Shown here piece after piece: positions 5,070 through 63,257 of a stretch of 64,000 bases of DNA. Both the position numbers and the translations under genes were made by a program. The notes under the pieces are model-generated. The model was not told the DNA's origin and did not search any database. It saw nothing but the letters and a program-made list of their open reading frames with translations. Where the stretch lies: NCBI GenBank assembly GCA_964016885.1, contig OZ024745.1, positions 50,716,001 to 50,780,000 of the forward strand, read 5' to 3'. Positions within the stretch are counted from its first letter, which is position 1. The number at the start of each line of letters is the position of its first letter. Source of the DNA: Eledone cirrhosa. Its lineage: Eukaryota.

Positions 5070-5230
5070 CGCAGCAAGGTCTTGCAGTTAAGAAGTTTGC
5101 TTCACAATCATCGGATTTAGAGATAGATCTCTCTGCGCGGCATTTTGGACAAGTGTCTTTTATCAGTTCCGGGTCGATCGAAGTCTTTGAATGAAATCAT
5201 GTTGAAGGAAACTATTTGGAAGTTCATCGC
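5070..5230 (+). mobile_element. Degenerate tRNA-derived SINE
   Basis: A-box-like GCAGTTAAGAAG followed by TTGGACAAGTGTCTTTTATCAGTTCCGGGTCGATC, which resembles SINE central domains. Confidence 0.5.
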
Positions 5231-7269: not shown

Positions 7270-7658
7270 CACATAAGTATTTATGATATGTATGTGTGTG
7301 AGTGTGTGTCTATAAATGTGATCCGTTCACTTTTGCGTTTATAACGCCAGTCTATGTGATAGCTTTTTTTTTTTATTAATTTATTAACAATGTTTTCGCT
7401 TATATTTTACTTTTTAAAAATACCTTCCATTTAATTTTTATTATATTTAATTATACTATTTTTCTCATCGTGAAATTATGTTATTTTAAGTTTTCATTCG
7501 GGTTTTTAAAACAAATATCTTTAAAATAAAATGTTTTTTTTTGTCAGTTCTAGAAATATTTTGTATTCGTTATGAAGCAAGGAATTTAGTTAAGTTTCAT
7601 ATTTATATATAATGTATGTATGTATGTATGTATGTATGTATGTATGTATGTATGTATG

Positions 7659-8159
7659 TTATCTCTTTCTCTTAATTTGGAGTATATTTTTTTGACCGGC
7701 CACCTTCCTGGTGGCAAGGTTGTAAAAGAAAAGAAATTGTCATCCCTTGAATCGCAAGAATGTTTTGCAAATTTTGAAGGTGCCAGCTATCGCAGCCATT
7801 TGTAGACTATGAATTAGGGAGCTGCGCTTTTTGTGCGCAAATCCAAGTTCAGTCATACTTTGGTCCAAGTGGGTTGGTATATAACCCGTAGCTCCAATAA
7901 TGATGGGTATGAAGCTAAAGGTGTATCTTGGATACTGGATTCTAAACTCCTCATCAATGGTCCGTAGATGTCCTCCTTCTCCTGTATTTTTCTGACAACG
8001 TTTACACCAAGTGGGCAGCTGATCTCCACAACAGAACACGTTTTCAATGTGTGGTCCCAAACAACAATATCAGGCCGGTTGTGCTTTAATTTGGTGGCAG
8101 TTTTTATTTTCAGGTTCCACCAGTATTCCTTAGTGCCATCTGTCTCAATATATTCTTCC
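7659..8159 (-). mobile_element. 5'-truncated R4/Dong-like element: restriction-like endonuclease (RLE) end and 3' UTR
   Basis: EYWWN...KHNRPDIVVWD...VVEISCP...KEDIY, frameshift, then IPIIIGATG...KICKTFL. The 3' UTR has the hairpin GCCACC-AGGAA-GGTGGC. (CATA)n flanks both sides. Confidence 0.85.
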
Positions 8160-8274
8160 TATGTATGTATGTATGTATGTATGTATGTATGTATGTATGT
8201 ATGTATGTATGTATGTATGTATGTATGTATGTATGTATGTATGTATGTATGTATGTATGTATGAATGTATGTAT

Positions 8275-8864
8275 GCTACTGGTAACATGTATCCCAGTAC
8301 AACCTGTCCCATGGTCGGGTCGTTGGCGACTAAACTGGCAACCCCACCAAGGTTTCTTGGTGAGGAGGGTGACTTTGGACATCCTGCAGGACTAAAAACA
8401 AAACCTGTCAAAGGGTAAAGGAGCTCTTAAGAGTCAATGGCCATCCAAAATCACCGGGAGAGATGACCCCCTTAGCTTTTGTCAAGGCAGAATTCTAGGA
8501 GAAGGATATCTCTGATATAACACCTGCAACCCTGATGGTATCCAATGATGTTGACTTGTTCTTCTTTTTGGTAAATATCATCTTGGTTAAGAGAGTGGGA
8601 CTGGCTTTGTGCAGTGCTTTTCTCACTATAAAAGCTTCACGGTACAGGCATTGCTTTATATCTGGAGATCTCTCTGCACTTGTCGTCACATGGTACCATG
8701 GGCCCAGCACTATGTGTCAATAATTGTCACAAGTGTAGTGTTTGTACCAGAGTTTTCAAGTCGCTGGCTGGACTAAAAAGTCACACTCTTTCAGCGCATC
8801 GGTCGGGGTTCTCCTACATGGATATAAAGTAGTGGCCGTACTCGAAAACGAGTTGGCAGCCACC
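8275..8864 (+). mobile_element. ~600-bp non-coding retroposon, copy 1 (TATG-flanked family A)
   Basis: Near-identical to 34699-35302 (-) and 43423-44026 (+). Constant end GTGGCCGTACTCGAAAACGAGTTGGCAGCCACC followed by (ATGT)n; the opposite end varies between copies. Confidence 0.9.
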
Positions 8865-10570
8865 ACTATGTATGTATGTATGTATGTATGTATGTATGTA
8901 TGTATGTATGTATGTATGTATGTATGTATGTATGTATGTATGTATGAATGTATGTATGTTATATATATATATAACATACATTCATGTGTGTATAAGTATA
9001 TATATATACTTTTACACAGTGTGTTCATTGTGTCTAAGAGAATGTTAGAATCAATAAATCGTGTGAAAAATACAAATAAAATCAGTGACTAATCATTGTG
9101 ATTTCCTGCCCATGTCTTTCGTTTCTATCTTAATTCGGTCTTTACAACTCGGAAGGAAATGTAATAGTAGGAGACAGGGGTTGTTTTGCCTTATCATTCT
9201 GTGATACTTTTGTAACAGTCATACACATACGCGAACGCTCGCACGTACACACGTATACATACCGAAACACATGCATTGAGTGCATCAGAGAGTTCATTTA
9301 TCTGAACGCTGATGCGTACTTCCAAATATAATTTTGATATAAAAGGCAGGGATTTTCAAAATCAAATGCGATGTATTGATGATGACAAAAGTATTTTTGA
9401 ATCACACGGTGAAAATTAGTTGGTAGAGTCAGCTTTAGCAGTATTATCCTAATAATTGGTGAGAAACCCCACTTTCTCACCGAACGGGACACCGGTCTAT
9501 TGTAGGAAATTCCTTTGTATAATGAGTACCAATTTTTCATAACAAGATGGAAGCTGGTTCATAGTAATATAATGGTTAATCCTCCTATTATACGATTTGA
9601 AATTGTAATTAGTCCACCAGACAATGTAATCAGAGATGTTCAACTGACTGGAATATTGTAAAATAAACTGTGATATGAAGTTATTTGTTTATCAGTCTGT
9701 GTATTAATGATAGCCTCTGACATGAGCACAAGGCCAGCAATTTTTTGGGGAAGGGAAAGTCGATTACATTGACCTCAGTACTTGACTTGTACTTTATTTC
9801 ATCGATCACAGAAGTATGGAAGGCAAATTTAGCCTCGGTTGGATTTGAACTCAGAATACCATGTATCCTTTTGCCTGATGCACTAACGATTCTGCACTTA
9901 GCCTGTGTATTAATGATTATACTACAAGGCATATCGTCCCTGGTTTAATAATTCTGTCAATCCATCGCCCAGGAGCAGTACTTTATTTATTGGCTCTGAA
10001 ATAATGAAAGCCAAAGTTGACTGCGGCAGATAGCTGGAACAAATACCGCAAGACAAACTTGATATTTCAGGAGCTGGATAATGCAGTTTCGTCAAGTCTC
10101 TTGAGCACAGGTGCAATACCGTGCAGGCGACAGCCTCCGACAATCGATTCTCGCGACTCTAGCAACTCGTTCATCTGCATTTAAATTGAAACCAACAACC
10201 CGCCCTAAACTGCTTCTGCTCCTACTATAAACGTAAGTGTTTATATATAAGTATTATATATAAGTGTTTATATATAAGGTAAAACCGTCCATCAGGATTT
10301 TATATACGTGCTTTTTCGTTATTCTCTAAAGACCAAACATAATGAAAACATTATTTTACTGAAACCTTCAAAATTCATTATTTTTCAAAATTAATTGAAA
10401 CATTCAATGTATTCCATAAGAGATATAGTCACGAAAAGGTTAACTGCATAAATATAACTTCATTACTGAATTAGATGTGACGTATGCTGTCTTTGCATGT
10501 GCATTTGTGGTCGAGTTTGTGTGTGTGTGTGAGAGAGAAAGCGAGCGTGTCTATATATATATATGTGTGT

Positions 10571-21134: not shown

Positions 21135-22269
21135 GTCGGCTAACAAAGATGCTCTCATGGAATGTGACCATATGAGGTTTATTTTTCAACATAGCCCCTT
21201 TTGCGATCCACGCATTTTTTCAAGCGGTGTTGCAATGCATGGATCCCATTGGTGAAGAAGCTTTCATTCTGTAATTTAAAAGTTATCAAAAGCAGATATT
21301 ACGTCAGCATCACTGCGATACTGATTCCCAGCCAAGCGTTGTTTCATGTTGGGGAACAAATGGTAGTCAGATGGGGCCAAATCAGGGGAATAGAGAGGGT
21401 GATCAACCAGTTCAAAGCAGCAACGCAGGACTTGTGTGCAGGAGCATTGTCCTGATGAAACAAGACCCCTTTCATCAGTTTTCCTGGGTATTGGATCTAG
21501 ATAGTTTTTCCTAACTGCCTCAGTACGTTGACATAGTACTTTCCACTGACGGTGTGGCGATGTGGCCCTTTTGCACCCCCCAAAACTGAGGCCATCACCT
21601 TCCCTGTACATGAAACGATCTTTGAAGCAGTTGAGGAAGTGTGTTTCCACTGCATGAACTGTCTCTTTGTCTCAGGCTCAAAGTGATGAATTCAACATTC
21701 ATCCAGCTTGATCTGCCTCTAACAATGTCAGATTTTCCCGTGATGTGATCAGCCTGGTGCACGTTTGACTAGATGTCAGAAGACGTAGCACCCATTTCAA
21801 TTCTTTCACGGGATAAGCTAATAGCATTGGCTATTTGATTTATAGTCAATTGCCTGTAATCCATCATCTTGTGGTGAACACGATCAATGTTTCTCTCGGT
21901 GGTGGCAGTTGCAGGACGTCCAGATCTTCGGTCACCTTCAAGACTCCCCCTTCCCCTCCTAAATTCAGCTTTCCACTGTTGCACTGTTAATAAAGCTGGA
22001 ATGTAATCCCTTAATGTAGCAACAATGTCAGCATGAGTGCTCTTGGAGGATAAACACATTTTCTGCAGGTACTTGATAACAACGACGATGCCAAGAAAAG
22101 TCACTACTAGCTACTTTTGAAATATTTTTTGAACAGTTAGATGTCAGTTTACCTGGAGGAAACAATTCAGTTATTAATAAGAAGAGTTGAAATTAATGCG
22201 CGCAGGATTTCGCAGCTCTAGCGTAATTCCTTCATAGTCAGCCCCTGAACTTCTCAGCCCACTCTAGTA
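21135..22269 (-). mobile_element. Degenerate mariner (Tc1/mariner) transposon with internal deletions
   Basis: HPLYSPDLAPSDYHLFPNMKQRLAG signature; N-terminal WKAEFRRGRGSLEGDRRSGRP. A mariner-type end (TA)CTAGAGTGGGCTGAGAAGTTCAGGGGCTGAC lies at ~22269; the other TIR is eroded. Confidence 0.9.
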
Positions 22270-22589: not shown

Positions 22590-22772
22590 ATAATTGTTTC
22601 TACTTTTAGCACAAGGCCAGCAATTATCCCAGTGTATTACTAGTACTTAATTTTATCGACTCTGTAAGGATGAAAGGCAAAGTTAACCTCGGCGGGATTT
22701 GAACTCAGATCATAAAGGGCCATAACTTTATGCTGCAAAGCATGGTGTCCGACGCTCTACTGATACTGCCAT
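22590..22772 (-). mobile_element. tRNA-derived SINE, Deu/Nin-type central domain
   Basis: Reverse-complement copy of 25533-25715. Confidence 0.85.
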
Positions 22773-25532
22773 ATAATGAAACATAATTATCAACTGAAGT
22801 CCGAGCCTAAAACGTCAATTAAATTATGCAAATGATTATACTAAACAATTTTATCTGAGCCATTGTCTATTATATCATTTAAACTCTGTATATATGTCTA
22901 AACACAAGAATAACTCCATGCGAGGAGAATGGTAAACTCGATACTATCGAAAATATTATTGGTACATATTGATTATTGAGGATTCTTTTTACCGATTATT
23001 CAGAAAAGAGCAGTAACCATAACCCTTTATTTTTGCAGGACCTCTGAAACTGGTGAGCGAAAGGAAGGAAAGTATCCTCAAGCCTGAATACCTGAAACTA
23101 AGATAATTCCGCCAAAGGTACCTAAGGGCCAGGTGGGGGTGCTAAACTAAGCGACATTTTAAGCCTACTAGCCAACAGTTCAGAAGGCCAAAAACCAAAT
23201 CAAATACTACAAGGTATTTCGTTCGATACTTTAGCAATGCCGATTAGCCATGGTCCATGACGGGTAGTTTATTTTGTGGACCGCAAAGGAATAAAATCCA
23301 ATATTGACATCCTCATAATTTAATCTCAAGGTGCAAAGAGCCGGAACAAATATCCGCAAAAGGATGTTGACCAAAGCCAAAATTAGAACGGAACTTAGAA
23401 AAGAGTAAACACTTTGATGTAGTTAATCAACTATACAACCTATTCTACGAGACCTCCTTTGAATCATTTAAATTAAAGACCATTTAGAGGAAATAGTGCA
23501 TAAAAAAATAGTCGACTATAAAAAAAAGTAGTATCTAAAACAAAACATGCGTAACAGGAGTGTATTGCAAATAAAAATGGTAAATGATTTCGAATTAATC
23601 TCCGAATATTAATTAAATACATAAACGCTTGTTCGGTACCCTTAATTTGTACTGTTTTAATTTTTTATAAATCTCTTAACCAATGTACTAATCTTCGAGC
23701 ATATGTTGAATAAAGTATATTAATGTATGGCTAATAAAGAAATCAACATCATTATTATTTGACTATTTATCACGAGCAACTTTGATGTTGCTTTGGGCCG
23801 GTTATTTAAGAGAATGCCGGGCTACAGCTAGTAACGTAGAGTAACTCCAGCTTTGTCATATCATTCCTTGTCCTTTTCCTGCTGCTGATAGTCCAGAACA
23901 CTTTTCAATATTCGGGTTGGTCTCGGTAGGCATGTCTTCCGGAGCGGTTCAATCTCAGGTGTAAAGTCTATCTTCGACAGTTAGTTTTCAAGGTTCTTTA
24001 TCGGCAAAATATAGCTATGGCTGTCCTGTTGTTCAACTGAAGTTGTTTTAACACCCATAAGCCACTTCATTCTGGGTAGGAATGATTGAGCCCTGTGGTT
24101 AGTGCGGCAGTTAAGGAGGAGCTTAGATACAACATTGATAAAGAGTGCAGGAGATGAGGGAGTTGAAAGTGTCTGGGTACAGTTGAGACGAAACCAGCCA
24201 GATTCGAGAAACCAAGGCCATTATAATGAGTAGAAAAGGAAGAGAGAGAATACAGCACATATGTGGGCTAAAGACTGGAGTTTGTCAGTAAGTGACTTTA
24301 TGCCAATCAGTGATATGTTGCGTCTAAACATTCCATCGAATAGATATATTTAAATACAGCTCACCATGCTGTAGATATACTAAAGTACAGTTGACTCAGA
24401 TTGCTAAATTACAGTAGAATAAGCGATAGAGCCACTATGTCATCTTTAAATCAGCTAGAAATAGTAGCCAAATCGCCTTCAAGTTACATTTTAAAAATGA
24501 ATGGACACATTAGATAATTTAATCCTATATACTCGTAAAAAGATTGATCTAGGATAAAACAACAACAATCAATGAAACAAACAAAAAGCGTTAACAACAA
24601 GAGCAGCAGAGCGGCGATAGTAACAGAAAAATAACAATTTTAGAAAAAAATGTGTTAGCAGAATAGGGTAGGAGTTAATTTGAAACACTTCCACGTGATT
24701 GCTTCTTTTTTTTTTCTGCTTGGAAAAGTCAGAATATTGAGAACAGTATAAATTGAGACTGAGAAATCAGAAATTCTTGACTGACTGGCTATAAATGTCA
24801 ACCACTTGATCCTCACTTGACATAAAAAAATATATAAAAAAAATATGGCTATGGTTGTCCTGTTGTTCAACTCAAGTTGTTATCACACCCATAAGCTACT
24901 TCATAAATACTTCATGTTTTTGTGTCAACATCTGATAACATTGTTAGTGCGTGAGAATACTAGTGTATGTATGCAGTGTCGGCGGCGGTGGTGGTTGTGG
25001 TGGGAGGATGAAGCAACTATTTGGTGCTTCTTTCGATTCACACATTCTATAAGCATCATTGACTTTTCTCAGGTCTTCTATTTAGCCATCGTACGAACTA
25101 TATCTATCATTATTTAGGGACACCAATCAAAAAGATATCGCCTTCTTTTCTCCTTCTTTTCAACATTCTACTCCTCTTTCTCTTCTTCATTTTTCCTCTC
25201 ATCATCATTACCACCACCACTACTATCACCACCTTGCCACCATTATTATGATGATCATTATCATGATCATCTTAAAGTGCAGTGGAAATAGTACCAAACA
25301 GTACAGCAACTAAATGCCTTGCACTATTTAGTTACATTTCTTAGTTTCAAGTTCAAATCCTATTAGATTTTTACTTTGTTTTCCTTGACACCAGATTTGG
25401 TAAAAAAAAAAAATAAAATAAATACCAGCGCTGTACAGCATTTATTTAAAAGACTACGCTTTTCCATTTAAATGTTTAACCTTTTTTTTCACTGCTAATC
25501 GACAACAGCTTCAGCAACATAAGGAACAGCAT

Positions 25533-25715
25533 GGATTGGCAGTATCGGTAGAGGGTCGGACGCCATGCTTTGACGCAACGATTTACGGCCCTTTCCATTC
25601 TGAGTTCAAATCCCGCCATGGTTAACTTTGCCTTTCATTCTTACGGGGTCGATAAAATAAAGTACCAGTAATGCACTGGGTAATTGCTGGCCTTGTGCCA
25701 AAAGTAGAAACAATT
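25533..25715 (+). mobile_element. tRNA-derived SINE, Deu/Nin-type central domain (reference copy)
   Basis: A box TGGCAGTATCGGTAG, B box GAGTTCAAATCCC, core ACTTTGCCTTTCATTCTTACGGGGTCGATAAAATAAAGTACCAG and tail GGCCTTGTGCCAAAAGTAGAAAC. At least 6 good copies plus many relics (~9720-9890, 11270-11370, 13060-13150, 23270-23350, 26280-26350, 34220-34320). Confidence 0.9.
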
Positions 25716-27184
25716 ATTTATCACCGAGGCAATTTTTGAGACCAAAGATTACAGACAATTTCCAGAATTCTTTGCCCTGGACTACCTAACTGGATGCAAC
25801 ATTCTGCTCGTTAAGTTCTGTTCACGCTGGCATGTTCAAGATGAGAAAAGAACGAGGAAAATGTATTTACAAGCTTGGAACACAGTTCTATTTTAGTACG
25901 TTCCTAACAGTCAAGCAAATCTATCATGAAGATAACCTTGTTAATTCTGGCAAGGACATGTTGAAATAGATTCTTATTGGCGTTATTGTTGTTGTTTTAT
26001 CGCTTGGTCAGGTGTAAAGGATATTGTACATTACCGTTTTCGGGGCCTCCGAAATAATTGTGAGAGAGAAAGGAAAGTGTCCTCAAACGTTAGACCTGGT
26101 CCGTATGCTTGCAATAGAGTGAACTCCACTTACAGGTACTTAAGGTCTAGGTAGTGGCATCAAAAATAGCGATGGATTAAATAAATCACCCAAGTAAGCC
26201 TCGATGGAAAATTAAGAGACACAACAGTTGCTACAGGGTATCCCTGATGTTCCAACGAGTCCATCATCTTAGAAAGACATTTTATTTATCGACCTGAAAG
26301 GATAAAAAGTAAAGTTGACCTCCTTGAGATTAGAACTCAAAATGCAAAGATTTAGATTTTTTTTTCTACACTCTTAGAATTCTGTCAATTCGCCGTCTTG
26401 TTCTTATAGTTAGTCCTAGGTTATCCTTGATCAAGCAAATCTATGAACAAGACTGTTACACCTGTGACGATAACGTCTCTTTTCTTAGGGTTGCAGAATC
26501 GTTGTGTCTAATGCATTCTTTAATTATTTAAAGCGTTAGTGCTTGTTTTGAAAGAAATTTGGTTGCTGTTTCTAATAAGTTGAGCAACCACTTAGATATT
26601 CCATCATTAATTTGACAGTCTAATTGTTTTAGAGTATTGATAAATAAACTCTTCGCTCCTAATCGGTGGGTATTTACTAATGCGGTTTGAGCATTTGTGC
26701 AGCCACACCACATTTATTATGTGCACAGTATTGTAGTGTGTGATGTCTTTGTGCTGTGCATAGTGTCAGCAGCTGTTCAGAGCTGAAATAGTTCTCTACG
26801 TTTCGAATGTAATCTTGGTTAGTTCATGTGAAGCCACTATCATTAAAGTATGTGAAGTCTTTCATTTGTAAAGAATTGGCAAGTCTATTATAAGTGATAT
26901 GACATGATAATATCTCCGAGCTTTTCAATAAAACTAAGTTATTTTGGACCAACTGCAGACTTCTGAATAAGGATATGGTATTCTGTACCTACAGCCTAAT
27001 TAAATTGTATACCGATGTTTCAGGAGACCCTAATGTTTTGGGGCTTTATTCATATTTTCTTTCTCCCTTTTTAATGAGATTAAGATTGTCAAATCTATTA
27101 ATGTTTTTTTCGATTGAGTTAATGCATGAGATATTCTCATTTTTCTTATTACATATGTAATATGTCAATGTAAAGCTGGGATAT

Positions 27185-33877: not shown

Positions 33878-34698
33878 CAGTATATAGTTTCTGGTTGCAA
33901 TGATCAAAATTTATACAAATGAATTGTTCGCGTTTATATCTTCCAATACTTCTGTCGCTCTAACTATTCTCTCTCTTTCTTCCACCCCTCTCTCTTTAAG
34001 ACTGTTCTGTACTCTTCTTCCCCTCGAGTTATACTTTGAATATTCTAGTAACTTATGAAGTTTTCTAATAGAAGGGCTTGTCCGCCTCTCGTTCAAACTT
34101 TCTCCATTGCTGGAGAACTAGGTGCTGTTAGTGGACTCCCATGGTTCGCTCATGGCGCATCGTAGCCTATTAAGAGAGAGAAGCAGGGGAGAGGAATAGA
34201 CAAAAGTACTTTTCTTCTACTTTCAGACTCCTAAAAGGATAAAAGGTAAAGTTGACCTCGACATGATTTGAACTTGGAGTGCCTAGAATCGGAACAAATA
34301 CTGCAAAGTATTCTATCTGACACTCTAGTTACTCAACATCCCACCTTTACTAACTATTAATAAGTCATGTAATTTTTTTATAAAAAAAATATTGAATCCG
34401 TATCAAAACTAATACTTATCGCTGTTTTATGATTATCACTAACATTATTTTCCTGTTGTACTTATGTAAATATGAATATACATAATTGAAAACTATTAGC
34501 ACTTCTATTTTTATGTCTGCATATTATAGCTAAAGTTCTGTAGCACTTCTATTTTTATGACTGCATATTATCCATTCGTAATGGCTCCCCCACTATGACT
34601 GACTTATTCTAGGTACAACATGTTTCGGGGCATGCATAAAACATATATGTACATGCATACATACATACATACATACATACATACATACATACATACAT

Positions 34699-35302
34699 GG
34701 TGGCTGCCAACTCGTTTTCGAGTACGGCGACTACTTTATATCCATGTAGGAGAACCCCTACCGATGCGCTGAATAAGTGTGACTTTTTAGTCCAGCCAGC
34801 GACTTGAAAACTCTGGTACAAACACTACACTTGTGACAATTATTGACACATAGTGCTGGGCACATGGTACCATGTGACGACAAGTGCAGAGAGATCTCCA
34901 GATATAAAGCAATGCCTGTGCCGTGAAGCTTTTATAGTGAGCAAAGGCACTGCACAAAGCCAGTCCCACTCTCTTAACCAAGATGATATTTACCAAAAAG
35001 AATAACAAGTCAACATCATTGGATACCATCAGAGTTGCAGGTGTTATATCAGAGTTTTCCTTCTAGAATTCTGCCTTGACAAAGGCTAAGTGGTCATCTC
35101 GCCCGGTGATTTTGGATGGCCATTGACTCTTAAGAGCTCCTTTTCCCTTTGACAGGTCTTTTTTTTAGTCCTGCAGGATGTCCAAAGTAACCCTCCTCAC
35201 CAAGAAACCTTGGTGGGGTTGCCAGTTTAGTCGCCAACGACCCGACCATGGCACAGGTTGTACTGGGATACATGTTACCAGTAGCACCAACTGGTGACCT
35301 GA
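34699..35302 (-). mobile_element. ~600-bp non-coding retroposon, copy 2 (family A, longest 5' end)
   Basis: Reverse complement of 43423-44026, flanked by (CATA)n on both sides. Confidence 0.9.
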
Positions 35303-35384
35303 CATACATACATACATACATACATACATACATACATACATACATACATACATACATACATACATACATACATACATACATAAT

Positions 35385-35452
35385 GATGGCTGCCCCCTCG
35401 TTATCGAGTATGGCCATTGCACATATACCATTATTAATAATTATTAATTAAT
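35385..35452 (-). mobile_element. 3' tip of related family B retroposon
   Basis: Terminal hairpin ATGGCCATACTCGATAACGAGGGGGCAGCCAT abutting the TATG array; matches 45160-45214. Confidence 0.7.
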
Positions 35453-35489
35453 TCTATCGTGCAATGCCTGTGCGTGAAGATATTTTTTA

Positions 35490-35850
35490 TCGTGCAGTGC
35501 CTGCGAAAGATCCTTCGTGTGTCCGGGCGCGACCGAGTGCGAAACGAGGAGATCCTGCGGAGAGCCGAGTCGTGGATGCTACAGAGAGTGGTCACAGAGC
35601 GTCGGTGCCGTCTGGCTGGCCACATTCTGCGTCTGCCAAATGAACGGCATTCGAAAACAGCGATGAAACTGGACTCCGCCTGGCGGTAAACGGAGGCGGG
35701 GTTGCCCAAGGATCACCTGGCGACGAACGTTCCGGAAGGACCTGATGGCAGACAACATAACCTGGCACGGTCTCGAAAAAGTTGCTGCTGATCGTGACCG
35801 TTGGCGAGTACTTACTGATCGATCCGCCGAACGGCGTGGAAAAATCTAAG
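35490..35850 (+). mobile_element. RTE-clade LINE 3' end
   Basis: QCLRKILRVSGRDRVRNEEILRR...RRCRLAGHILRLPNERHSK, frameshift, then KRRRGCPRITWRRTF; ends in ATCTAAG. GC-rich and CpG-retaining. Confidence 0.9.
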
Positions 35851-35879
35851 ATGATATATATATATATATATATATCTTG

Positions 35880-36281: not shown

Positions 36282-36640
36282 GGTGATGGATTGGCAGTAT
36301 TGGTAGTGGGTCGGACGCCATGCTTTCAAGCATAGTTACGTCCCTTTACGATCTGTGTTCAAATCCCGCCGAGGTTGACTTTGCCGTTCATCCTTACGGA
36401 GTCGATAAAATAAAGTACCAGTAATGCACTGGGATAATTGCTGGCCTTGTGCCTAAAGTAGAAACAAGTATTGGTAGTGGCTCTGACGCCATGCTTTGAC
36501 GCATGGAGTTACAGCCCTCACCATTCTGAGTTCAAATCCAGCCGAGGTTAAATTTGCCTTTCTACCTTACGGGGGTCGATAAAATAAGGTACCAGTAATA
36601 TACTGGATAATTGCTGGCCTTGTGCCAAACGTAGAAACAG
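36282..36640 (+). mobile_element. Head-to-tail dimer of the Deu/Nin-type SINE
   Basis: Two consecutive copies (36282-36468 and 36469-36640); the second lacks its first few 5' bases. Confidence 0.85.
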
Positions 36641-37227
36641 TTATAATGTTTATCCACATGTGATCGTCTAAACATATCAACTAATAGTTATTCAGTAGTA
36701 ACCAGATTATTGTTTATCTACAACTTGCGTCTCTGTAATACACTGTATGCTGCTCATACGAGGATAATTTCTGTAATGCTAGGATTTTGTTTTGTTTTGT
36801 TCGATTGATTTTTTGAGATTCTGATCGGAGTAATATTTGTAAAATTCGATTGTGAACTTCGTATGTAAACTGTAATGACATGAATTGTATTTTACAATCG
36901 GGTATTTGCTGGCCTTGTGCCAAAAGTAGAAACAATTATTTGATGGGTGATAGGATTTTATATTTAATTGCAGGTTGTTCTTTCTTGTTACAGGATAACC
37001 ATTCAATTCTATTCAACACAAGAGATTCCCAATTTATAATGTTTAATGTGTCTAATAAACATCTGTTGGAAATATTCTACACTTGACACAGAAGTGCTGG
37101 AAAAGGCAGGGTACCTCAGTATGGGTGGTTACCGCATAAAGTAACATACGCTGGGTTGGTCTATTTATCTGGTTTGGTGAGGTCTAGGTAAGCGTCCTCA
37201 GCACTAACCAAAGCACACACACACACA

Positions 37228-38993: not shown

Positions 38994-38999
<6 letters not shown>

Positions 39000-39861
39000 T
39001 TAGAAACACACAGATACATGCGGACGCACACATATATACATGAACGCATCCGCACCCAACTGTGAGTTAAGGGTGCCAACTTCACCGATGTTGCTCAATG
39101 AATGACCGGGATAGACTAATTCAGTTTGAACTAGACTGAAACAGTATCAGAGTTAAAAATACATTATGAAGAGAGAAGAAACATTTAGATATAATTAGTA
39201 ATAAAATGTATCATACCTAAACTGTTCCTAAATTCCTCGACTACGTAGTTTCGTGGCATAAACAAAAACAATATATCAAAGATATAGAGTCCTTGCGAGG
39301 TCTGCCGACTTATCAAGAGGATACCTCATTTTACTAGTCTCAAGAACGCGTCTACACGACGTGAGAAAGAATCCCAAAAGGCGGAGGGGGAGATAGTCAC
39401 GCGATATAACTGTCGAGAAACAGAGCTAAGCCTCCTATAACCACGAAGAAAATACCACGGAGGCGGAGGGGGTATTCATATCGAGGCCGTAGAAGAGGTA
39501 GTGAAGAAGGCGAGAAGTATGAGTAATGGAAGCTTTCCAGTTGTCCCCACACCTCGAAGATTGCTCGACCAGAGGGAGTTATTAATATATTTAGAAACAC
39601 ACAGATACATGCGGACGCACACATATATACATGAACGCATCCGCACCCAACTGTGAGTTAAGGGTGCCAACTTCACCGATGTTGCTCAATGAATGACCGG
39701 GACAGACCAATTCAGTTTGAACTAGACTGAAACAGTATCAGAGTTAAAAATACATTATGAAGAGAGAAGAAACATTTAGATATAATTAGTAATAAAATGT
39801 ATCATACCTAAACTGTTCCTAAATTCCTCGACTACGTAGTTTCGTGGCATAAACAAAAACA
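38994..39861. repeat. 277-bp direct repeats (38994-39270 and 39585-39861) flanking a 314-bp unique segment
   Basis: Offset is 591 bp; only two substitutions were seen (gggatagactaat vs gggacagaccaat). Confidence 0.9.
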
Positions 39862-42065: not shown

Positions 42066-42570
42066 ATGTGTGTGTGCGTGTGTGTGCGCGCCTGTATGTA
42101 TGTACTCCAGGTTTTATTATTTCTCAACAATAGAGGAGAGAGAAAGAGAGAGACAGTGAGAGATAGCGAGAGAGAGAGAGAGAGGGAAAGAGAGAGAGAG
42201 AGAGGGGGAGAGAGAGAGTGAGAGATAGAGAGAGAGAGAGCGGGGGAGAGAGAAAGAGAGAGATAGACGGAGAGAGAGAGAGAGAGAGGGAAAGACAAAG
42301 AGAGGGGGGGGGGGGGGCGAAATAACTTCTAACCGAAAAACAGCTCTTTCATTGAAATTTAGATACTATCACTTGGATAATTATATGTGTCTGTCTGCAT
42401 GCATGTGTGCAGTCAAGGGTGTCATTGCATATGTTGAATTTGCATGCTCTAAATTATATGTGCACATATATACCTATTCTTAGATCTACATGTAAATATG
42501 TCCAGGCGTTACATGCTAAATATCTGGAATGTTTTACATATTTTTACAATGCAGAACATGGCCTGTACTA

Positions 42571-42755
42571 TAATTGTTTCTACTATTGGCACAAGGCCAG
42601 CAATTACCCAGTACATTACTGGTACTTTATTTTATCGACCCCGTAAGGATGAAAGGCAGAGTTAACCTTGGCGGGATTTGAACTCAGAATGGCAAGGGCC
42701 GTAACTCTATGCGTCAAAGCATGGCGTCCGATCCTCTACCGATACTGCCAATCCA
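42571..42755 (-). mobile_element. Deu/Nin-type SINE
   Basis: Reverse-complement copy of 25533-25715. Confidence 0.88.
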
Positions 42756-42782
42756 CTGTACTATAATGTTCTAATTTGACGT

Positions 42783-43353
42783 GCTCATTCTGGTTTTGTG
42801 TAGACCAGATTTTCAAGATTTCTGTTGAGGTAATTAGTAACATATCCAAGTGCACTAATAACCACAGGCACAAATATAAAGCTATAATCAAGGTGGAGTA
42901 TCTGTATATATGTATGTTCTTCTGGTTTTATAATTTCACACATTTTTGCCAATAAAGAGAGAGAGTCGGTTTCTAACATAGTTACAAGACTCTCTCATTG
43001 GAATTTACACAACATCAACTAGGTAGATATGTATGCATGTCTGCATGTGTAGATATGGATGTTATTGTATGAGTGGATGTGTATGTTTTGAGTTGTATGT
43101 GTGTATGTACATACGTTTTGTATCTGTACATGTGTATATGCAGTTATTAGATGCAACACTTTTGGAATGTTTGACATATTTTTACTGTTCCATTAATGGA
43201 TTGTATATGTAATTACCTAACTAGTTGTGTTCTTTCTGTTTCTGTGAAGCCCAGGTTCTCAAGATTTGTATTGAGGCAGTTACTAACATATCCTAGTGCC
43301 CCAATAATCACAGGCATAAATCTGAAGGTATAGTCAGGTATAGAAGGTACGTT
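42783..43353 (-). mobile_element. Two tandem R4/Dong-like 3' fragments (42783-42905 and 42916-43353)
   Basis: PDYTFRFMPVIIGALGYVSNCLNTNLENLGF and ILHLDYSFIFVPVVISALGYV. The 3' UTR is near-identical to 44070-44300; a short CATA run separates the fragments. Confidence 0.85.
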
Positions 43354-43422
43354 CGTATGTATGTATGTATGTATGTATGTATGTATGTATGTATGTATGT
43401 ATGTATGTATGTATGTATGTAT

Positions 43423-44026
43423 GGTCACCAGTTGGTGCTACTGGTAACATGTATCCCAGTACAACCTGTCCCATGGTCGGGTCGTTGGCGACTAAACTGG
43501 CAACCCCACCAAGGTTTCTTGGTGAGGAGGGTGACTTTGGACATCCTGCAGGACTAAAAACAAAACCTGTCAAAGGGCAAAGGAGCTCTTAAAAGTCAAT
43601 GGCCATCCAAAATCACCAGGAGAGATGACCCCTTAGCCTTTGTCAAGGCAGAATTCTAGGAGAAGGAAAACTCTGATATAACACCTGCAACCCTGATGGT
43701 TTCCAATGATGTTGACTTGTTCTTCTTTTTGGTAAATATCATCTTGGTTAAGAGAGTGGGACTGGCTTTGTGCAGTGCCTTTGCTCACTATAAAAGCTTC
43801 ACAGCACAGGCATTGCTTTATATCTGGAGATCTCTCTGCACTTGTCGTCACATGGTACCATGGGCCCAGCACTATGTGTCAATAATTGTCACAAGTGTAG
43901 TGTTTGTACCAGAGTTTTCAAGTCGCTGGCTGGACTAAAAAGTCACACTTATTCAGCGCATCGGTAGGGGTTCTCCTGCATGGATATAAAGTAGTGGCCG
44001 TACTCGAAAACGAGTTGGCAGCCACC
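43423..44026 (+). mobile_element. ~600-bp non-coding retroposon, copy 3 (family A)
   Basis: Near-identical to copies 1 and 2; (TATG)n on both sides. Confidence 0.9.
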
Positions 44027-44069
44027 ATGTATGTATGTATGTATGTATGTATGTATGTATGTATGTATG

Positions 44070-44915
44070 TTCTTGTGGTTTTATAATTTGACAAATGTTT
44101 ACCAATAGAGAGAGAGAGTCGGTTTCTATCATAGACACAAGACTCTCTCATTGGAATTTACACAACATCAACTAGGTAGATATGTATGCATGCATGCATG
44201 TGTAGATATGGATGTTATTTTATGTGTGGATGTGTATGTTTTGTGTTGTATGTGTGCATGTGTATATGGTTTGTATCTGTACATGTGTATATGCAGTTAT
44301 TAGATGCACAATTTGGGGAATGTTTTACATATTTTTACTGTTCCATTAATGGATTCTATATGTAATTTCCTAACTAGTTGTGTTCTTTCTGTTCCTGTGA
44401 AGCCCAGGTTCTCAAGATTTGTATTGAGGCAGTTACTAACATACCCCAGTGCCCCAATAATCACAGGCATAAATCTGAAGGTGTAATCAGGGTGGAGTAT
44501 CTGAAGATTTCTCATCAGTTCTGCATAAATATTCTCCTTTGCGCTAATCTTTGATATTATATTGGCATCTGCTGGGCAGCTAATTTCCACTACTGTGCAT
44601 GCTTTCTTCTCTGGTCTGTTATGTCTGCATTTTATTGGGTGTTTTACTGGAATATTCCACCAGTACTCTATTATATTATGTACATGGATATCTTCCACAT
44701 TGCTGTAGCTTTTAATGTGTTTATTATCGGGGCTATTTTTTCTACGGATTGCATCGTACAGTGTTTTAGCCACTACATCATGCCTCATAGGTAGATAGTA
44801 CCGCGATGACATCTTTGGACAGCTGCTGATGACATGGGTGACATCTTCGATGTTAATTCTGCGGAGTCTGCACTTGCTATCACATCTAGGTGTTTTGCCT
44901 GCATCCCTATCTCTT
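44070..44915 (-). mobile_element. 5'-truncated R4/Dong-like element: CCHC knuckle, RLE domain and 3' UTR
   Basis: CRLRRINIEDVTHVISSCPKMS (CCHC with one Cys lost), RHDVVAK, EYWWN, HNRP (short deletion), VEISCP, KENIY. The 3' UTR hairpin CCAATGAGAGAGTC...GACTCTCTCTCTATTGG is followed by (ACAT)n. Confidence 0.9.
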
Positions 44916-44925
44916 TGTATGTATG

Positions 44926-45214
44926 TGACATAGAAATAATCGGGCTGGATAGGTTAAACCACTGGGAGTGAAGGCCCCCCCTAACCTTTGTGAGGGCATT
45001 CTTCTAGGAGAAAGCAACTCAGGAAACTGGAATAACTCCGACATAAAACCTGCGGCTCAGTAGTTACCGATGATGTTGATCTTTTCTTCTTTTCAGGTTA
45101 TAGCTAGTGTCGCTCAGAGAGTGGGGTTGGTTTAGTGCACAGCCTTTCCTCACTTAGCTTAATTGATAATTATTAATAATGTTATATCGTGCAATGGCCA
45201 TACTCGATAACGAG
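44926..45214 (+). mobile_element. Family B non-coding retroposon (diverged relative of family A)
   Basis: Shared blocks CTAGGAGAAAGCAACTC, GATGATGTTGATCTTTTCTTCTTTT and GAGAGTGGGGTTGG. The terminal hairpin is cut by a (GA)n array. Confidence 0.75.
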
Positions 45215-45252
45215 AGAGAGAGAGATGGAGAGGGAGAGAGAGAGAGAGATAG

Positions 45253-45374
<122 letters not shown>

Positions 45375-47396: not shown

Positions 47397-49010
47397 TCAG
47401 TCCGGAGCCTTGTAGTTATGCAATAGATGTTTGGTGACGTGTGGACAACGTGTGAAAAATTCACTCCTCGTGTTTAGGCAATCACTATTGCGTAATCTCT
47501 TTAGGATAGTTATTCGTTCGTCAATACATAAGCCACACGTCGGATTTCCCCTTGCGTATGGCTTGGACTTAGTGATGGCTTTCCATTGAATGGAGTACCC
47601 TAGACTTGAGTCCTTGAGGGACCATACGTGGCTCGCGAGTTTCGTGGATGAACGTCTGTCCGGGTATCTGAAGGTAGACTGGTGGTTCAGGAAACGTTCC
47701 TTGAATCGGCCTTCCGCCATGCCCACATAGGATTTGACCTCCTGTGGTTCGTTTGGTCGGTTGGAAGTGACCACAGCTTCATAGATTACAGCTGGTGTGT
47801 TGCATTGTTGTTGAAGGAGGCAAGCTTCAGTCTTACGGCAAGAGCACCCTGGTGGGGTGTTGCTCCTAGGGCTGCTGGTGATGTGGGCCTTCATGTTCTT
47901 AGCGCAGGAGTATCCTAGTTTAACTTTGTGTCGGTTAAAGATGGAGCGGTATTTATGACCTATGAGGAAGTGTCTATCTAAGAGGGCTAGAAATTTATTT
48001 CCTACATTGGTTTTAACGTTGAGTGAGAAGGGAGGAGAGACCCAGATAGTTTCTCTATTGATGCGCTTACTTTTCTTAATGGTGTTGTTGCTAGTGGGAG
48101 AGTAGGTGATAGGTTGTGAGAAGCCGCTGTTAGCCAACGCCGTGTTATAGTAGGGTGCCGCCCTGTCAAAGATAGCCTTATTAGAGGAGAAGTTTGAGAT
48201 TCTAATACTAATATTCTTAAGTTTCTAAAAACAGTGGGAGGGTGGCATGAGTCCCTGTGAATGTAATTAAGTTTCTCGTTTAGCTTATGGAAGGGTCTGT
48301 TGGTGTGTGTGCGAAGGTCTAAATTAATGTCTAAGAAATCTACGCTAGAGAGGTTGGTGGCTACTGTTATCCTAAGTCCTAACTCATTGAAGGTAAAAGC
48401 TAAGTCTTTTTTAAACCGGTCGAGGTCGTGACCACTTTTATGGCTCGATAAAGTCAGTCCATCGTCACGGTATATTCCCGTGTGGAAGTCCGGGAATCTA
48501 ACACGTAATATGTCTAATATAAAAAGGCCAACCAAGTCACATACGTCAGCACTGTCAGACGATCCCATGGAGACGTCGAACAGGTCTGAAGATGTAGACT
48601 TCTTTGCCCAGGCTACTCCGTTGTTGAAGGGGAGAGTTTTCGGCGGTTAGCGATGATTTCCCTTTCTAAACCATGGACGGTGGTATAAGTGGTAGCGAAG
48701 TCCAACGCTTTGTTTAACAGGGTCTCTGAGATCGACGGGTAAAAATCGACAATGTCAAACTGTGTGAACTTCGCTTTTTTGGATTTTAAGGAGTTAAACT
48801 ACTTAATTACGGAGTCGCTGTTCTCCCACTGGGGCAGGTTGGACTTGGTACTAATGGTCTTAACTATGTTTCTAAGTATGGCCTTACTGACTAGTCCCAT
48901 ATCTTTGCGTGCCGGGTTTATTAGTCTACATGTGGGGTTAGAAGTAAAGTCTACCTTGTGATCTTTCAGGGTGAGGAACGCCTCCCGCTTAGCTAGAGAT
49001 TGTAGCTTTT
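47397..49010 (-). pseudogene. Frameshifted PLE reverse transcriptase / GIY-YIG endonuclease ORF (Naiad-like Cys pattern)
   Basis: RT motifs PTCRLINP, FDIVDFYPSI, FDVSMGS and YRDDGL; linker IWVSPPFS and CSC-x5-C-x5-C; endonuclease motifs VIY...YVG, FKERF, CGLC and LNTRSE...CPH. Frameshifts near 48640 and 48210. Confidence 0.92.
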
Positions 49011-49147
49011 TATTTTCAACCAAAAAACTTTCCGGACTTTCGCAGTTATCTCCCTTACACGCCCCGCACGCAGTCTAGTATTGCCTGCGTGAAGTGACCG
49101 AGTTTCTGCGCATGCGCGTTCGTACGGTTGTCTTTCCTGTTCCTATA

Positions 49148-54134: not shown

Positions 54135-57100
54135 CAGGGGTCGGCAACCTTTTGGAGAGAGAGGGCCAAACAGCTATGCAGTGTCATGGAGGAGGGCCAT
54201 GTTATTAAATATGTAAATACATTTTCTGGAGGTTTAAAGCAAAACAAGGAATTTAATATAATTTTACTTTAACAAGGCCCCTTATTTTACTGCAGGAATA
54301 ACAAAAAAAAAAAAGAAGAAAATTAACTACAAACACATTCAACAAAAAAAAGCAAATTCCTTATTTTACTGCAGGAAAAACAGAAAAACAACTACTATCA
54401 TAATCAACAAAAAAAAAAAGCAAATTCCTTGCTACAAACGAAATACAGTTAGAAATGGTAAATGATTTAATGAGACACTTGTTTCTGCTTATTGTGCGAT
54501 AACTTCTCCACACCAGGTGAAATATTTGTCGATGACAGGAGCAAAACATCATCCAGGTGGTCGTCACGCAACCTTGTTCTTAAATGACTTTTAGTATATT
54601 TCATTTTGGAAAAAAGTTGTTCACAAGCATATGTACTTCCAAATAATGATATCATCAGTTTCGCATTAGTCAAGATGTTTTTATATTTTCCGCTTGGCAA
54701 TATATATTTATTGTAGAAGTCAGCAGTGGATTCGAACTGAAATTTCGATTTCAAAGATTCGTCGCACTGTAGGTCAATTAACTCCAACTGATATTCTTCT
54801 GCCACATCTGTTTCGTAAGGAGTACCAAATAACTTAAATAGAGTTCCATATTGCCGGAAGTCAGCAAAACGAGAGGAAAACTCGTTTCTCAAATCCTTAA
54901 TAGAGCTCACAAAGATGTCTGGTATTATATCTCTCTTGTGATTTTGGAGACTTGGGAAATGAGAGTAGTTTCCGTTTTGAAGTTGTGATTCCCACATTCG
55001 AAGTTTTCTCTCAAAAGCAGTAATTTGACCAAACATCTCAAATACAACCTTGTTCTTTCCTTGAAGCTCAAGATTCAAAGTGTTCATGTTGGTCGTGATG
55101 TCCACTAAAAAAGCTAACTTGACAACCCACTGTGGATCCTGAAAGTAAGAATTATCTTGGTATTTGCTCTCTAAAAACATAGAAATCTCTTCTCTCAATG
55201 CATATACTCGTTCTATCATTTTCCCGCGGCTAAGCCATCGAACATTTAAAAAATATGTAAGGTCGCCATACTCTGCTTCAATTTGTTTTAGAAATTCTTG
55301 AAACTGGCGGTGATTTAGTCCTCTTGACAGTATAAAATTCACTGTTTTCACGACCACTGCCATGATGTCCTTAAAATTCAGTGACTTTGCACATAATGCT
55401 TCTTGATGAATATTGCAATGAAGTTTGATTAGTTTTTTATCAATACCGATGTGGTTTTGGAGCAATGCAACAAACCCCTTTTTCTCTCCAACCATTGCTG
55501 GTGCTCCATCTGTGATTACTCCAGAAAGCTTTGATAAATCCAGATTCATTTCGGTAATCCATTTCATGCTTCCCAAAATATCTGCTCCAGTGCTAGTGTC
55601 CTTCATAGGAATCAATTGTACAAATTCTTCCACAATATTGGTGTTACACCCCTCACAAACACTGCAAGTTAACAAGTATCCTTCATATCTGTGGTTTCAT
55701 CGATAGCAATGGAATAATACTCCAGATTATTTAAAATGCCCTCCAAGCCACTTCTGACATTTGCTGCCAGCTCTTCAATTCGCCTTGTTACTGTTCTTGC
55801 TGATAAGCTGATCGCAGAAAATAATTCCCTTTTTTCTGGACAAACAACATCTGCTACCTTCAACAATAATTCTTTGAAGAAATCTCCACCAGTAAAAGGT
55901 TTCATCCTTTCTGCAATTAGTTTTGACACCTCGTAGCTAGCACGAGTGTTTCGGTCACTTTCTTCAACTTTTCTAGTGAAAAAGGATGATTGCTTTGTTA
56001 CATTATTTCTCAGCCGTGCAACTTCGTTTACTCCTGTTTTTCCAGTAAAACTGTTGTAATGATTATGACGAGTTTCATAGTGCCGTTTAATATTTGAAAC
56101 TTTCTTCACGGAAATGGTTTCTTGACAAATTAAGCAAACACATTTTCCGAAGTGTTCAATGAAAAAATAGCTAAGTGTCCAGCCATCGTTAAAAGTTCGG
56201 CACTCCAAGTCCACTTTTCTTTTCTTAGCTTCCATGGGCTTGTTTTTGTTCAAACAAAAAAGATTTATGGAAAGGGAAAAGAACAAAAAGTGTAATAATT
56301 AGAATGAAGAAATAAGAAACAATGAAAACAAATGTAAATGCGAATACAGTAATGCGATAAAATATGATAATTGTGAATAAATTATATAAAACCAGGTTTC
56401 TAACCATGTTGTTAGATCAGGGTTGCCATTTGTTTTTTTAAACCACTTTTGGCCAAATTCTAATAATAATAATTCACACAATTTATCATAAATAATTAAA
56501 TAAACGTTATTATCGAATAAAGATACCTACTGTATAGTTGTTATACCACAAGACAAAAAACTCAAATGAAAATACTCTGGGGAGGAGGGAACGGAGTAAT
56601 TTTTCAAAGGACATCTTTACATTGTGCCGGGGGGCACAGGTAAGGTCAGGCAAACAAAGACGACAATAATTCACGTGTGATTTTATTGAATGACAATATG
56701 GGTATAAAAGCGAGTCATGCGAACCGTAAGGTAGTATACTTTCCATTCGCTGACGAAAATGCATACTTCCAGCCAACATGTGTGTTTGTGAAATGCAACA
56801 AAAACACATACATGAAATCACAGGAAATAATAATACAGGTGATATAATGCTTGGCGGAAAGCCAAGAAAAAGATGGATAATAATAAATGGAAAATATAAT
56901 AAGGTTACAAAGGTATCTGTAAATATATACCGTATGAGCAGCGATTTGTGATGGGCATCAGGTCGACACAACTTTGAGTGAACTACTGTATCTGTATTCG
57001 ATACTAATTACATAATTAGTGTCCAGTGTAAGATGGCGGGCCGGACAAGAATCACTCGAGGGCCGGATGTGGCCCGCGGGCCGGGGGTTGCCGACCCCTG
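54135..57100 (-). mobile_element. Full-length hAT DNA transposon (SPIN/Charlie/Buster group)
   Basis: Perfect 15-bp TIRs CAGGGGTCGGCAACC / GGTTGCCGACCCCTG; 8-bp TSD CCTTAAAG / CCCTAAAG (7/8, NNNTANNN type); internal transposase. Confidence 0.96.
54467..56235 (-). pseudogene. hAT transposase (GTF2IRD2/SPIN-like) with a nonsense codon and a frameshift
   Basis: MEAKKRKVD; BED finger CVCLIC...IKRHYETRH; AIDETTD; ITDGAPAM; HCNIHQEALC; VRWLSRG; STYACEQLFS. TAA at 55669-71 lies in DTC*LAVFVRGV, and the frameshift is near 55640. Confidence 0.93.
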
Positions 57101-61296: not shown

Positions 61297-62194
61297 GCGT
61301 GTGTGTGTGCGCGCGCACGCGTTTGTGAGTGTAGACAGTCAGATGATAAATGTAACAGCTCTGGACAATACCATTTTCATGAATCTTCTCTCTCTGTTTG
61401 GATTCTGCCGAGATCTACACCACCTTTTACTCATTCGAATCGTTAAAATTAGCAGCTGTATTTTTCCGCGTTATATTAAATTATTAATTCACCTTAGGAA
61501 AAAATTAAGCTTGCGCCTGCACAATCAAAAATAATTACGATCAATTAATTTGAAAAGGAAAAAAACATTCGTTGAAATACAAATAAAACACAAATAACGA
61601 TTGTAAAAATATGTTATCTCACATTTCTATGCTTAAAACCGGATTTGTTTTGTTTATACGGTCAAGAAACCTAAGTAGTCATCACGGGAAAATAGCGGCA
61701 ACATTCTGAGATTGTGGCCGAGTGAATTGTTTAGAAGTAGAGTTGAAAGTTTTGTTTGCCAATTCTTTCGAATGCAACACTAACCAGTTACATACAATAG
61801 GTATTTAGTAAGAAAACAAAATCATCTTTATTGTAAATGAGAAACTAGCCATACTGATTACAAATATTATATTATCGTTTTAAGTTGAAACCGTTTCATT
61901 AGCCGGCTTCTTAACCTCTGCGTCATCTCAACTCCGAACAACAACGTAATTGAGATATATATATATATTGAAAGAGGGAAGAATAACATGGTCAACATTA
62001 CAAAAAAGGTTTTTATTTACAGTATTAACAATTGTTTCACTGATTAAGTTGTTTAAAAATTGCTGAACACTTGAAGCTGTGCCACTCAATTTTAAATACG
62101 ATGTTAGCTTAACCAGATCACCAGAAAGGACTGTTAAAAACATACTCAGCGTTTACGAATTAAAATTACAACATCATTAATAAAGAAAGAGAGA

Positions 62195-62460: not shown

Positions 62461-62475
62461 AAAAAATAATAAAGA

Positions 62476-62662
62476 TAATTGTTTCTACTTTAGGGACAAG
62501 GACAGCAATTACCCAGTACATTACTGGTACTTTATTTTATCGACCCCGTAAGGATGAAAGGCAAAGTCAACCTCGGCGGGATTTGAACTCAGATCGTAAA
62601 GAGACGTAACTATGCTGGAAAGCATGGCGTCCGACCCTCTATCGATACTGCCAATCCACCGC
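62476..62662 (-). mobile_element. Deu/Nin-type SINE
   Basis: Reverse-complement copy of 25533-25715. Confidence 0.88.
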
Positions 62663-62890: not shown

Positions 62891-62998
62891 TATTTCTGAT
62901 GATCTGGTTAAGCTAACATCGTATTTAAAATTGAGTGGCACAGCTTCAAGTGTTCAGCAATTTTTAGACAACTTAATCAGTGAAACAATTGTTAATAC
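62891..62998 (+). ncRNA. Type I hammerhead-like motif with 79-nt stem II domain
   Basis: TATTT-CTGATGA-T-CTGGTTAAG...CTTAATCAG-T-GAAA-CAATTG-TT-AATA; stem I is weak. The minus-strand twin has a mutated core (CTGGTGA). Confidence 0.62.
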
Positions 62999-63257
62999 TG
63001 TAAATAAAAACCTTTTTTGTAATGTTGACCATGTTATTCTTCACTCTTTCAATATTATTACTCCAAGATAAACTTACATAGACATTCCCGAGAACTCACA
63101 AACTCGCCACCTACTGAAACCTCTTGTTGAGTCAAACAACGCCGTACGCTAAAACTATCCACAATACGGAGTATTCACAACCTCTAACTGGATTACCTAT
63201 AACGATATTTTGTTATCCCTTATATCTATATAAGGGATAACAAAATATCGTTATAGG

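Follow-up and report, generated by a model that had tools for sequence, protein, structure and literature searches.

Results

A (CATA)n array subdivided by four insertions

The window, by which we mean the whole 64,000-nucleotide stretch of Eledone cirrhosa contig OZ024745.1 that was analysed, is animal DNA of approximately 36% GC and is rich in microsatellites. Between positions 42093 and 44926 a single (CATA)n array is subdivided by four insertions, three R4/Dong-like LINE 3' ends (R1, R2 and R3) and one copy of a second family, family A. The features of this chain, its neighbour (a family B copy) and two further clusters are as follows.

42093..42104, minus-strand reading: (ACAT)3 array remnant at the R1 3' end, left edge of the chain
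42105..42904, minus strand: R1, 5'-truncated R4/Dong-like copy, the oldest
42570..42755, minus strand: 190-bp SINE-like repeat within R1, flanked by a 12-bp target duplication and without a link to the microsatellite
42905..42917, unstranded: degenerate 13-bp array remnant, from the R2 3' end to the R1 5' break
42918..43338, minus strand: R2, 5'-truncated R4/Dong-like copy, 93% identity to R3
43339-43354: filler of 16 nt, from the R2 5' end to the array
43355..43423, unstranded: (GTAT)17 array, 17 units, 69 bp, from the R2 5' end to the A 5' end
43424..44026, plus strand: family A, non-coding bipartite element with RTE-5'UTR-like motif, finger remnant and stem-loop
44027..44070, unstranded: (ATGT)11 array, 11 units, from the A 3' end to the R3 3' end
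44071..44916, minus strand: R3, 5'-truncated copy that includes a zinc-knuckle region, an RLE domain and a hairpin in the 3' UTR
44916..44926, unstranded: 11-bp array remnant, right edge of the chain; in reads the R3 family continues differently
44952..45214, plus strand: family B copy, both ends damaged, outside the array, running into (GA)n at 45214
7612..8959, unstranded: second cluster, consisting of (ATGT)12, R0, array, A copy, array
7660-8159, minus strand: R0, third RLE family, PD motif intact
8160-8275 (116 bp) and 8867-8959: arrays of the second cluster, either side of the A copy at 8276-8866
34656..35490, minus strand: third cluster, consisting of the 3' end of a truncated B with an (ATGT)n tail of 81 bp, and a 43-bp array
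34699-35301: A copy of the third cluster, within the (ATGT)n tail of the truncated B

The original prediction described a chain of five CATA-linked insertions that began with an R4-like fragment at 42783. The order of the elements, the arrays at 43355-43423 and 44027-44070, the opposite polarity of the two element types and the similar clusters at 7612-8959 and 34656-35452 were all borne out by the sequence. The first fragment, however, is part of a longer copy, R1 (42105-42904), which is split by the SINE-like repeat and a (GA)n tract; because the R1 3' end runs into ACATACATACA at 42093-42104, we place the start of the chain near 42093. Two of the links are long arrays as described, but the R1-R2 link is a degenerate 13 bp and the last link is 11 bp. 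Similarly, four of the insertions do lie in one array, but B lies 25 bp beyond its edge at 44926, separated from it by non-B sequence at which read depth drops approximately 25-fold or more. Since four elements subdivide one array, B is a neighbour of the chain and not a linked member. R1 and R2 resemble each other weakly over the last 28 bp of R1 (17 bp, 88%).

CATA-type runs of at least 11 bp occur 23 times in the window, 11 of them at R, A or B ends and 12, all short, elsewhere. All seven arrays of at least 40 bp touch an R, A or B end. As a control, two CATA units within 40 bp were found at none of the eight copies and fragments of the 190-bp repeat in the window. Repeat totals in the window are 1760 bp for AT, 884 bp for AC, 470 bp for AG and 464 bp for ACAT.

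Several other repeats were seen. The 190-bp repeat, which we take to be a SINE, is present in six copies, two of them tandem, that are 81-95% alike (22590-22771, 25532-25717, 36287-36645, 42570-42755 and 62475-62659). The (GA)n tract of approximately 170 bp at 42132-42304 interrupts the R1 3' UTR at the place taken in R2 and R3 by a short, GA-rich arm of a hairpin, and is possibly a microsatellite born within R1. A 163-bp inverted repeat, 98% identical and MITE-like (61965-62127 and 62893-63055), encloses a SINE copy and a T-rich tract, and a 277-bp direct duplication, 99% identical (38994-39270 and 39585-39861), is either a recent duplication or an assembly artefact. ORF remnants at 47397-49074, 54467-56298 and 21276-22110 presumably derive, respectively, from a Penelope-type RT that carries a GIY-YIG nuclease, from a hAT-type transposase and from a mariner transposase.

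The R elements are dead R4/Dong-clade copies

The window holds three RLE families (R0; R1; R2/R3), one more than the two R4-like families that had been predicted. R2 and R3 are 93.1% identical, and R1 is 78% identical to R3 in the coding part and 67-70% in the 3' UTR. Of 31 longer proteins drawn from 329 candidates, most match the zinc-knuckle and RLE region of R3 with their C-termini at 43-54% identity. Judged by the RLE motifs given in PMC4838377 (zinc knuckle, RH and PD-(D/E)), R0 retains RPD...E-x-S and R3 has the knuckle region and RHD. A 21-bp deletion, private to the R3 copy according to the reads, takes out the PD catalytic motif. The Pfam scan did not recognise the RLE fragments of the window. 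The R elements are dead, 5'-truncated copies of R4/Dong-clade non-LTR retrotransposons. Two further RLE fragments, at 746-967 and 5604-5826, are degraded and show neither clear ends nor a clear array.

R1 (at 42904) and R2 (at 43338), from different families, lost their 5' parts at nearly the same point of the element, no more than a few codons apart. A target-like stretch next to these breaks is a possible preferred joining point.

CATA-type arrays at the 5' junctions of R copies

The 5' break points differ among all four defined R copies (R0, R1, R2 and R3). A tail encoded by the element would leave the microsatellite at the 3' end and random sequence at the 5' flank. Instead, three of the four truncated copies have a run of at least 11 bp of (ACAT)n within 16 bp of the 5' break, and the fourth, R1, has a degenerate run. 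The 5' end of R0 abuts the 116-bp array directly, R2 reaches the 69-bp array after the 16-nt filler, and R3 joins the 11-bp run. The rough chance of three such 5' junctions in four is 3e-8 to 2e-7 if junctions are independent; those of R and A are not, because most of these copies sit in chains (three of four for R, two of three for A).

Reads covering 44059-45222 were taken from four of the 20 listed runs. In these reads the R3 family goes on past 44916 as coding sequence, so the 11 bp at the R3 5' end are not element sequence; R3 and the array overlap by a single base, or by three bases should an A have slipped within a run of A. Among the 15 joints listed (of 228), three lead from internal R sequence to ATGT and the 3' end of a next R. 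These joints, at R positions 44308, 44355 and 44691 with 10, 4-5 and 1 distinct read starts per run, respectively, are tandem R chains elsewhere. Mixed loose ends without an array were also found at 44313, 44314 and 44367, with approximately 4,500-6,300 reads per site (X18 and X19; 24 listed of 3023). They fall on AATT, where library fragments end, and are therefore read as probable library ligation products. It is very likely that the R elements target CATA-type arrays.

Full-length relatives carry CATA or CTTA arrays

A scan of unrelated metagenomes supplied relatives; the best 80 of 168 confirmed loci were kept, and the contigs may be collapsed consensus copies. Three full-length relatives examined each have a single ORF of 1149-1162 aa with Pfam RVT_1, a part absent from the window copies, and Pfam found no APE family in them. 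Their best matches among solved structures are R2 proteins (E 9e-48), and the protein atlas returned unnamed eukaryotic clusters only.

CATA or CTTA arrays are present at nine of 15 clade loci, all in element-sense polarity, at the 5' side of six, at the 3' side of six and at both sides of three. Arrays flank both ends of L002 and L004 (CATA) and of L003 (CTTA). Further CTTA arrays are found at the 5' side of L001, L006 and L010 and at the 3' side of L005, L007 and L014. In L001, 400 bp of non-array flank precedes the array; L007 has (AAT)17 at its broken 5' end (L007:1-51) and CTTA at its 3' end. The six clade loci with no array are mostly contigs that stop within or near the ORF. Outside the CWTA group, more distant loci include L015, which abuts (TAA)n on either side, and two full-length RLE elements, L019 and L021, whose flanks are rDNA-like; a 14-bp target duplication is present at L019. 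We take these flanks to be the 28S R4 site and both loci to be linked to R4. The end of L014 (3748-3885) is a compound array that passes from CTTA to CTGA to GACG.

A tree of C-terminal domains (32 rows, 254 columns, root unreliable) placed R0 and R3 in a 20-row clade (100/99) with all seven CTTA loci and both CATA loci; R1 and R2, whose length did not suffice for tree building, were compared by BLASTP alone. The CATA rows form one side of a branch (86/91), and the four target labels need three changes. Over the C-terminal domain, identity with R3 is 41-52% for seven CWTA loci and 31% for another two; it is 28% for L015 and 22-24% for the rDNA-inserted L019 and L021. The locus nearest to R3 by raw identity is the CTTA-flanked L001 (52%), and for that reason the position of R3 within the clade is loose. 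An RT tree was built from 47 of the 80 loci and eight proteins with a midpoint root, 33 loci being dropped for short matches; its references are identified by their flanks, and it includes no named R2, NeSL, HERO or CRE rows. In this tree the CWTA clade joins insect proteins and the loci flanked by TAA or inserted in rDNA (SH-aLRT 99), and an Argonauta protein groups with the CATA loci.

These data strongly support insertion of the R lineage into CWTA tetranucleotide arrays, CATA here and CTTA in sister families. The CATA-directed R4/Dong lineage of the original prediction is supported by the 5' junctions, the tandem read joints, the relatives flanked on both sides and the grouping in the RT tree, and proves to be wider, including the CTTA sisters.

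A predicted model of the N-terminus of L002 contains three helices (pLDDT 74), and its top structural matches are mostly Myb/SANT domains with middling scores (Z 5-6.3). Foldseek, Pfam and profile comparisons of this putative Myb-like domain gave nothing significant; L005 was left out of the N-terminal alignment on account of a stop codon.

Two records filed as bacterial genomes (G001 and G002; L081-L104) include long animal contigs with Ceph-type SINEs and Dong-like fragments. They contain only distant RLE fragments, two of these near TAA-type runs, and L081 includes a tandem run of 123-bp SINE pieces.

Families A and B resemble RTE-derived non-autonomous elements

The three A copies are 96.8-97.6% alike, and no long ORF was found in the family. 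Their 3' end is constant and carries a hairpin in all three (z -2.8 to -3.1), whereas the 5' start shifts by as many as 16 bases from copy to copy. Arrays of at least 10 units lie on both sides of every copy, and a target-site duplication within a perfect array would look like the array itself. The copy at 8276 lacks 14 bases that form a hairpin, and loss after insertion could explain this. Family A also contains a C2H2-like finger remnant of 57 aa, for which a protein search with three candidates returned no homologue, and no autonomous partner of A came to light in this way. The remnant and the hairpin may be of the kind seen at RTE ends.

An RTE-5'UTR-like motif lies near 43635-43687 (A positions 212-264). 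It matches the RTE-derived half of Ceph-SINEs over approximately 54 bp at 80-81% identity, a match that includes the 20-mer used as the search query. The 3' half of Ceph-domain SINEs derives from an RTE 5' UTR, and the same RTE-like segment occurs in one coral R4 (R4-1_ADi) and one Ingi element (PMC5786205). The motif had no matches in viral contigs. Its 24 matches in genome contigs were considered as autonomous RTEs and rejected, all being SINEs. Scans with Rfam gave nothing at the gathering level in the window, the weak hits being confined to 43380-45260 and driven by the microsatellite, and found no ribozyme family, the 5' HDV-like kind of some RTE families included.

Family B is 72% like A over 127 bp and has a similar end. 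As predicted, the family reads into (ATGT)n, both in the copy at 35383 and in 69 contigs of run X1 (agreement 0.61), but the copy beside the chain enters (GA)n at 45214. Neither B copy in the window has an array at its 5' side. Comparison of A and B with the R copies and with 80 RLE or other LINE loci revealed no shared sequence except one 34-bp match (E 0.047). In sequence, both families resemble non-autonomous elements that derive from RTEs and end in (ATGT)n tails.

A separate plus-strand fragment at 35470-35875, an RT C-terminus ending in (AT)11, meets the truncated B copy head to head across a short sequence common to both. We assume this RT fragment to be RTE-like.

Because the A copies are 96.8-97.6% alike and R2 and R3 are 93.1% alike, A looks younger than R2/R3, and it is seemingly the latest arrival at all three sites. 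The likely order of arrival in the chain, judged by divergence, is R1, then R2 and R3 in tandem, then A between R2 and R3. The idea of a second retroposon sharing the array holds for A, which is RTE-like and lies inside arrays in three of three copies, but B is not linked to the array here. With three copies to go by, A probably targets arrays.

Discussion

Relation to known target-specific elements

The original prediction names Rex6 among the R4-clade elements that target simple repeats. R4/Dong elements insert into rDNA or into microsatellites, the latter being (TAA)n in most insects, molluscs and cnidarians (PMC7998251, PMC2887409). Dong resembles the relatives described here in having an RT, a C-terminal zinc knuckle with RLE and microsatellite on both sides, and perhaps in its Myb/SANT-like N-terminus (PMC7998251, PMC3812793), and the TAA-flanked L015 falls in the same RT clade; the targets here are, however, (CATA)n, or (CTTA)n in the sisters, and not (TAA)n. 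R4 itself inserts into 28S rDNA, and the relatives share an RT clade with L019 and L021, but the target here is a dispersed microsatellite. The Waldo elements (WaldoAg1, WaldoAg2 and WaldoFs1) target ACAY microsatellites, ACAT included (PMC3812793). They are, in contrast, APE-type elements of the R1 clade from insects, while the R copies carry an RLE; the CATA-type target is a case of convergent use by Waldo and the R lineage. Some HERO families also target microsatellites, and Togen targets (TG)n (PMC4640811).

Among molluscs, R4-Dong is found almost only in cephalopods (PMC10294476). Dong-R4 and RTE elements are abundant there, with no target stated in the available text (PMC13282606, PMC8967140), and in Octopus vulgaris Dong-R4 is abundant and recently active, with five families and 1129 recent insertions (PMC13282606). 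The R copies may well be among these annotated families. The available parts of PMC4758252, PMC5035012 and PMC13708176 hold nothing on targets. In the literature searched we found no CATA- or CTTA-targeting R4/Dong family, which may be on record in Repbase Reports or subscription papers; going by the literature searched, the CWTA tetranucleotide is a new target variant of the known Dong-type microsatellite targeting.

Family A shares with bipartite non-autonomous RTEs and the Ceph-SINE half a 5' UTR-derived segment joined to a 3' end, the lack of an ORF and a microsatellite tail (PMC5786205). It differs in its size of approximately 600 bp, its finger remnant and its position within long arrays. 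Published overlaps between tail and target of animal RTEs are one or two bases (PMC6007223), whereas A lies in long arrays.

Proposed mechanism and alternatives

We propose, with a probability of roughly 0.72, that a CWTA-array-targeting R4/Dong lineage and an array-entering, RTE-derived family A build chains by repeated hits on the same array. By analogy with R2 biochemistry, the putative N-terminal Myb-like domain and the restriction-like endonuclease of R would recognise the array, the (ATGT)n strand would be nicked and target-primed reverse transcription would begin there (PMC4838377). Each insertion would leave array on both sides, so that the same array could be hit again to give head-to-tail chains. 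The RNA of A and B would end in a stem-loop and (AUGU)n; in a tail-pairing model of the kind put forward for RTE elements (PMC6007223), the (AUGU)n tail of A would pair with the nicked (ACAT)n strand, and A, as its three copies suggest, would enter the opposite strand. Chains would form because R and A insertions both leave target on each side. The original prediction went further and had the two element types regenerate targets for each other. No R copy was seen in a tail made by A, which looks younger than R2/R3, and nothing indicates a new array made by R. The tails of A and B can supply targets, and it is possible that R in turn exploits those left by A.

The part of this proposal that concerns A has an unlikely but respectable competitor, in which R targets CATA, the (ATGT)n upstream of A comes with the RNA of A itself, the master copy of which lies within an array, and R later uses the arrays that A delivers. 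The starts of all three A copies fall in a span of 16 bases, the shortened copy lacks a hairpin that could have been deleted after insertion, and RTE insertion sites do not appear sequence-specific (PMC2887409), all as this account would have it. Set against these points, A looks younger than its neighbours (96.8-97.6% versus 93.1% for R2/R3), one copy sits within a B tail with no R nearby, and all three abut an older element, which would be rare under random insertion. Considerably less probable is movement of A and B in trans by the R4/Dong protein, their opposite polarity being a mere choice of transcribed strand. That A and B occupy the same arrays as R, and that coral R4-1_ADi has an RTE-like 5' UTR segment (PMC5786205), would fit such movement, but A and B share no R or LINE sequence other than the 34-bp match (E 0.047), and the invariant, hairpin-bearing end of A is the end that reads into (ATGT)n.

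Least probable of all, by a small step and in our estimate very improbable, is that the arrays are element-encoded 3' tails that expanded after insertion, with the chain a passive pile-up or a product of repair at fragile repeats. The repeat does stand at the end of every R, A and B family, the seeding of microsatellites by RTE elements is known (PMC2887409), and the two old RLE fragments at 746-967 and 5604-5826 have no arrays. Arrays nevertheless stand at the 5' junctions of truncated and full-length copies alike, with strict polarity and with a target that tracks the tree; the AT, AC and AG repeats each exceed ACAT in the window, yet the R 5' ends lie in ACAT; and L002, L003 and L004 contradict a tail-only origin directly. 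Repeated targeting of the array by R, with entry of A, is accordingly the reading that we prefer.

Implications

The analysis assigns a target to an abundant and recently active group of LINEs in cephalopod-type genomes. In practical terms, any CATA microsatellite marker developed in such a genome will be flanked by repetitive sequence. If the result for A holds genome-wide, it would stand out as an exceptionally strong example of an RTE-type element guided to its target by its tail. A bolder and rather doubtful extension is that the R copies belong to a widespread, undescribed R4/Dong sub-lineage that changed its target from TAA to CWTA and diverged into CATA- and CTTA-specific branches, with a strongly array-directed RTE sharing the niche in this genome through its (AUGU)n tail and both re-entering it. 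If that were true, two unrelated endonuclease types would run one microsatellite niche from opposite strands, with RTE tails seeding targets. The intact relatives, with one-base differences in target (CATA, CTTA) and a TAA outgroup, form a natural series for tests of specificity, one that could separate the roles of the Myb-like domain, the endonuclease and the RNA tail.
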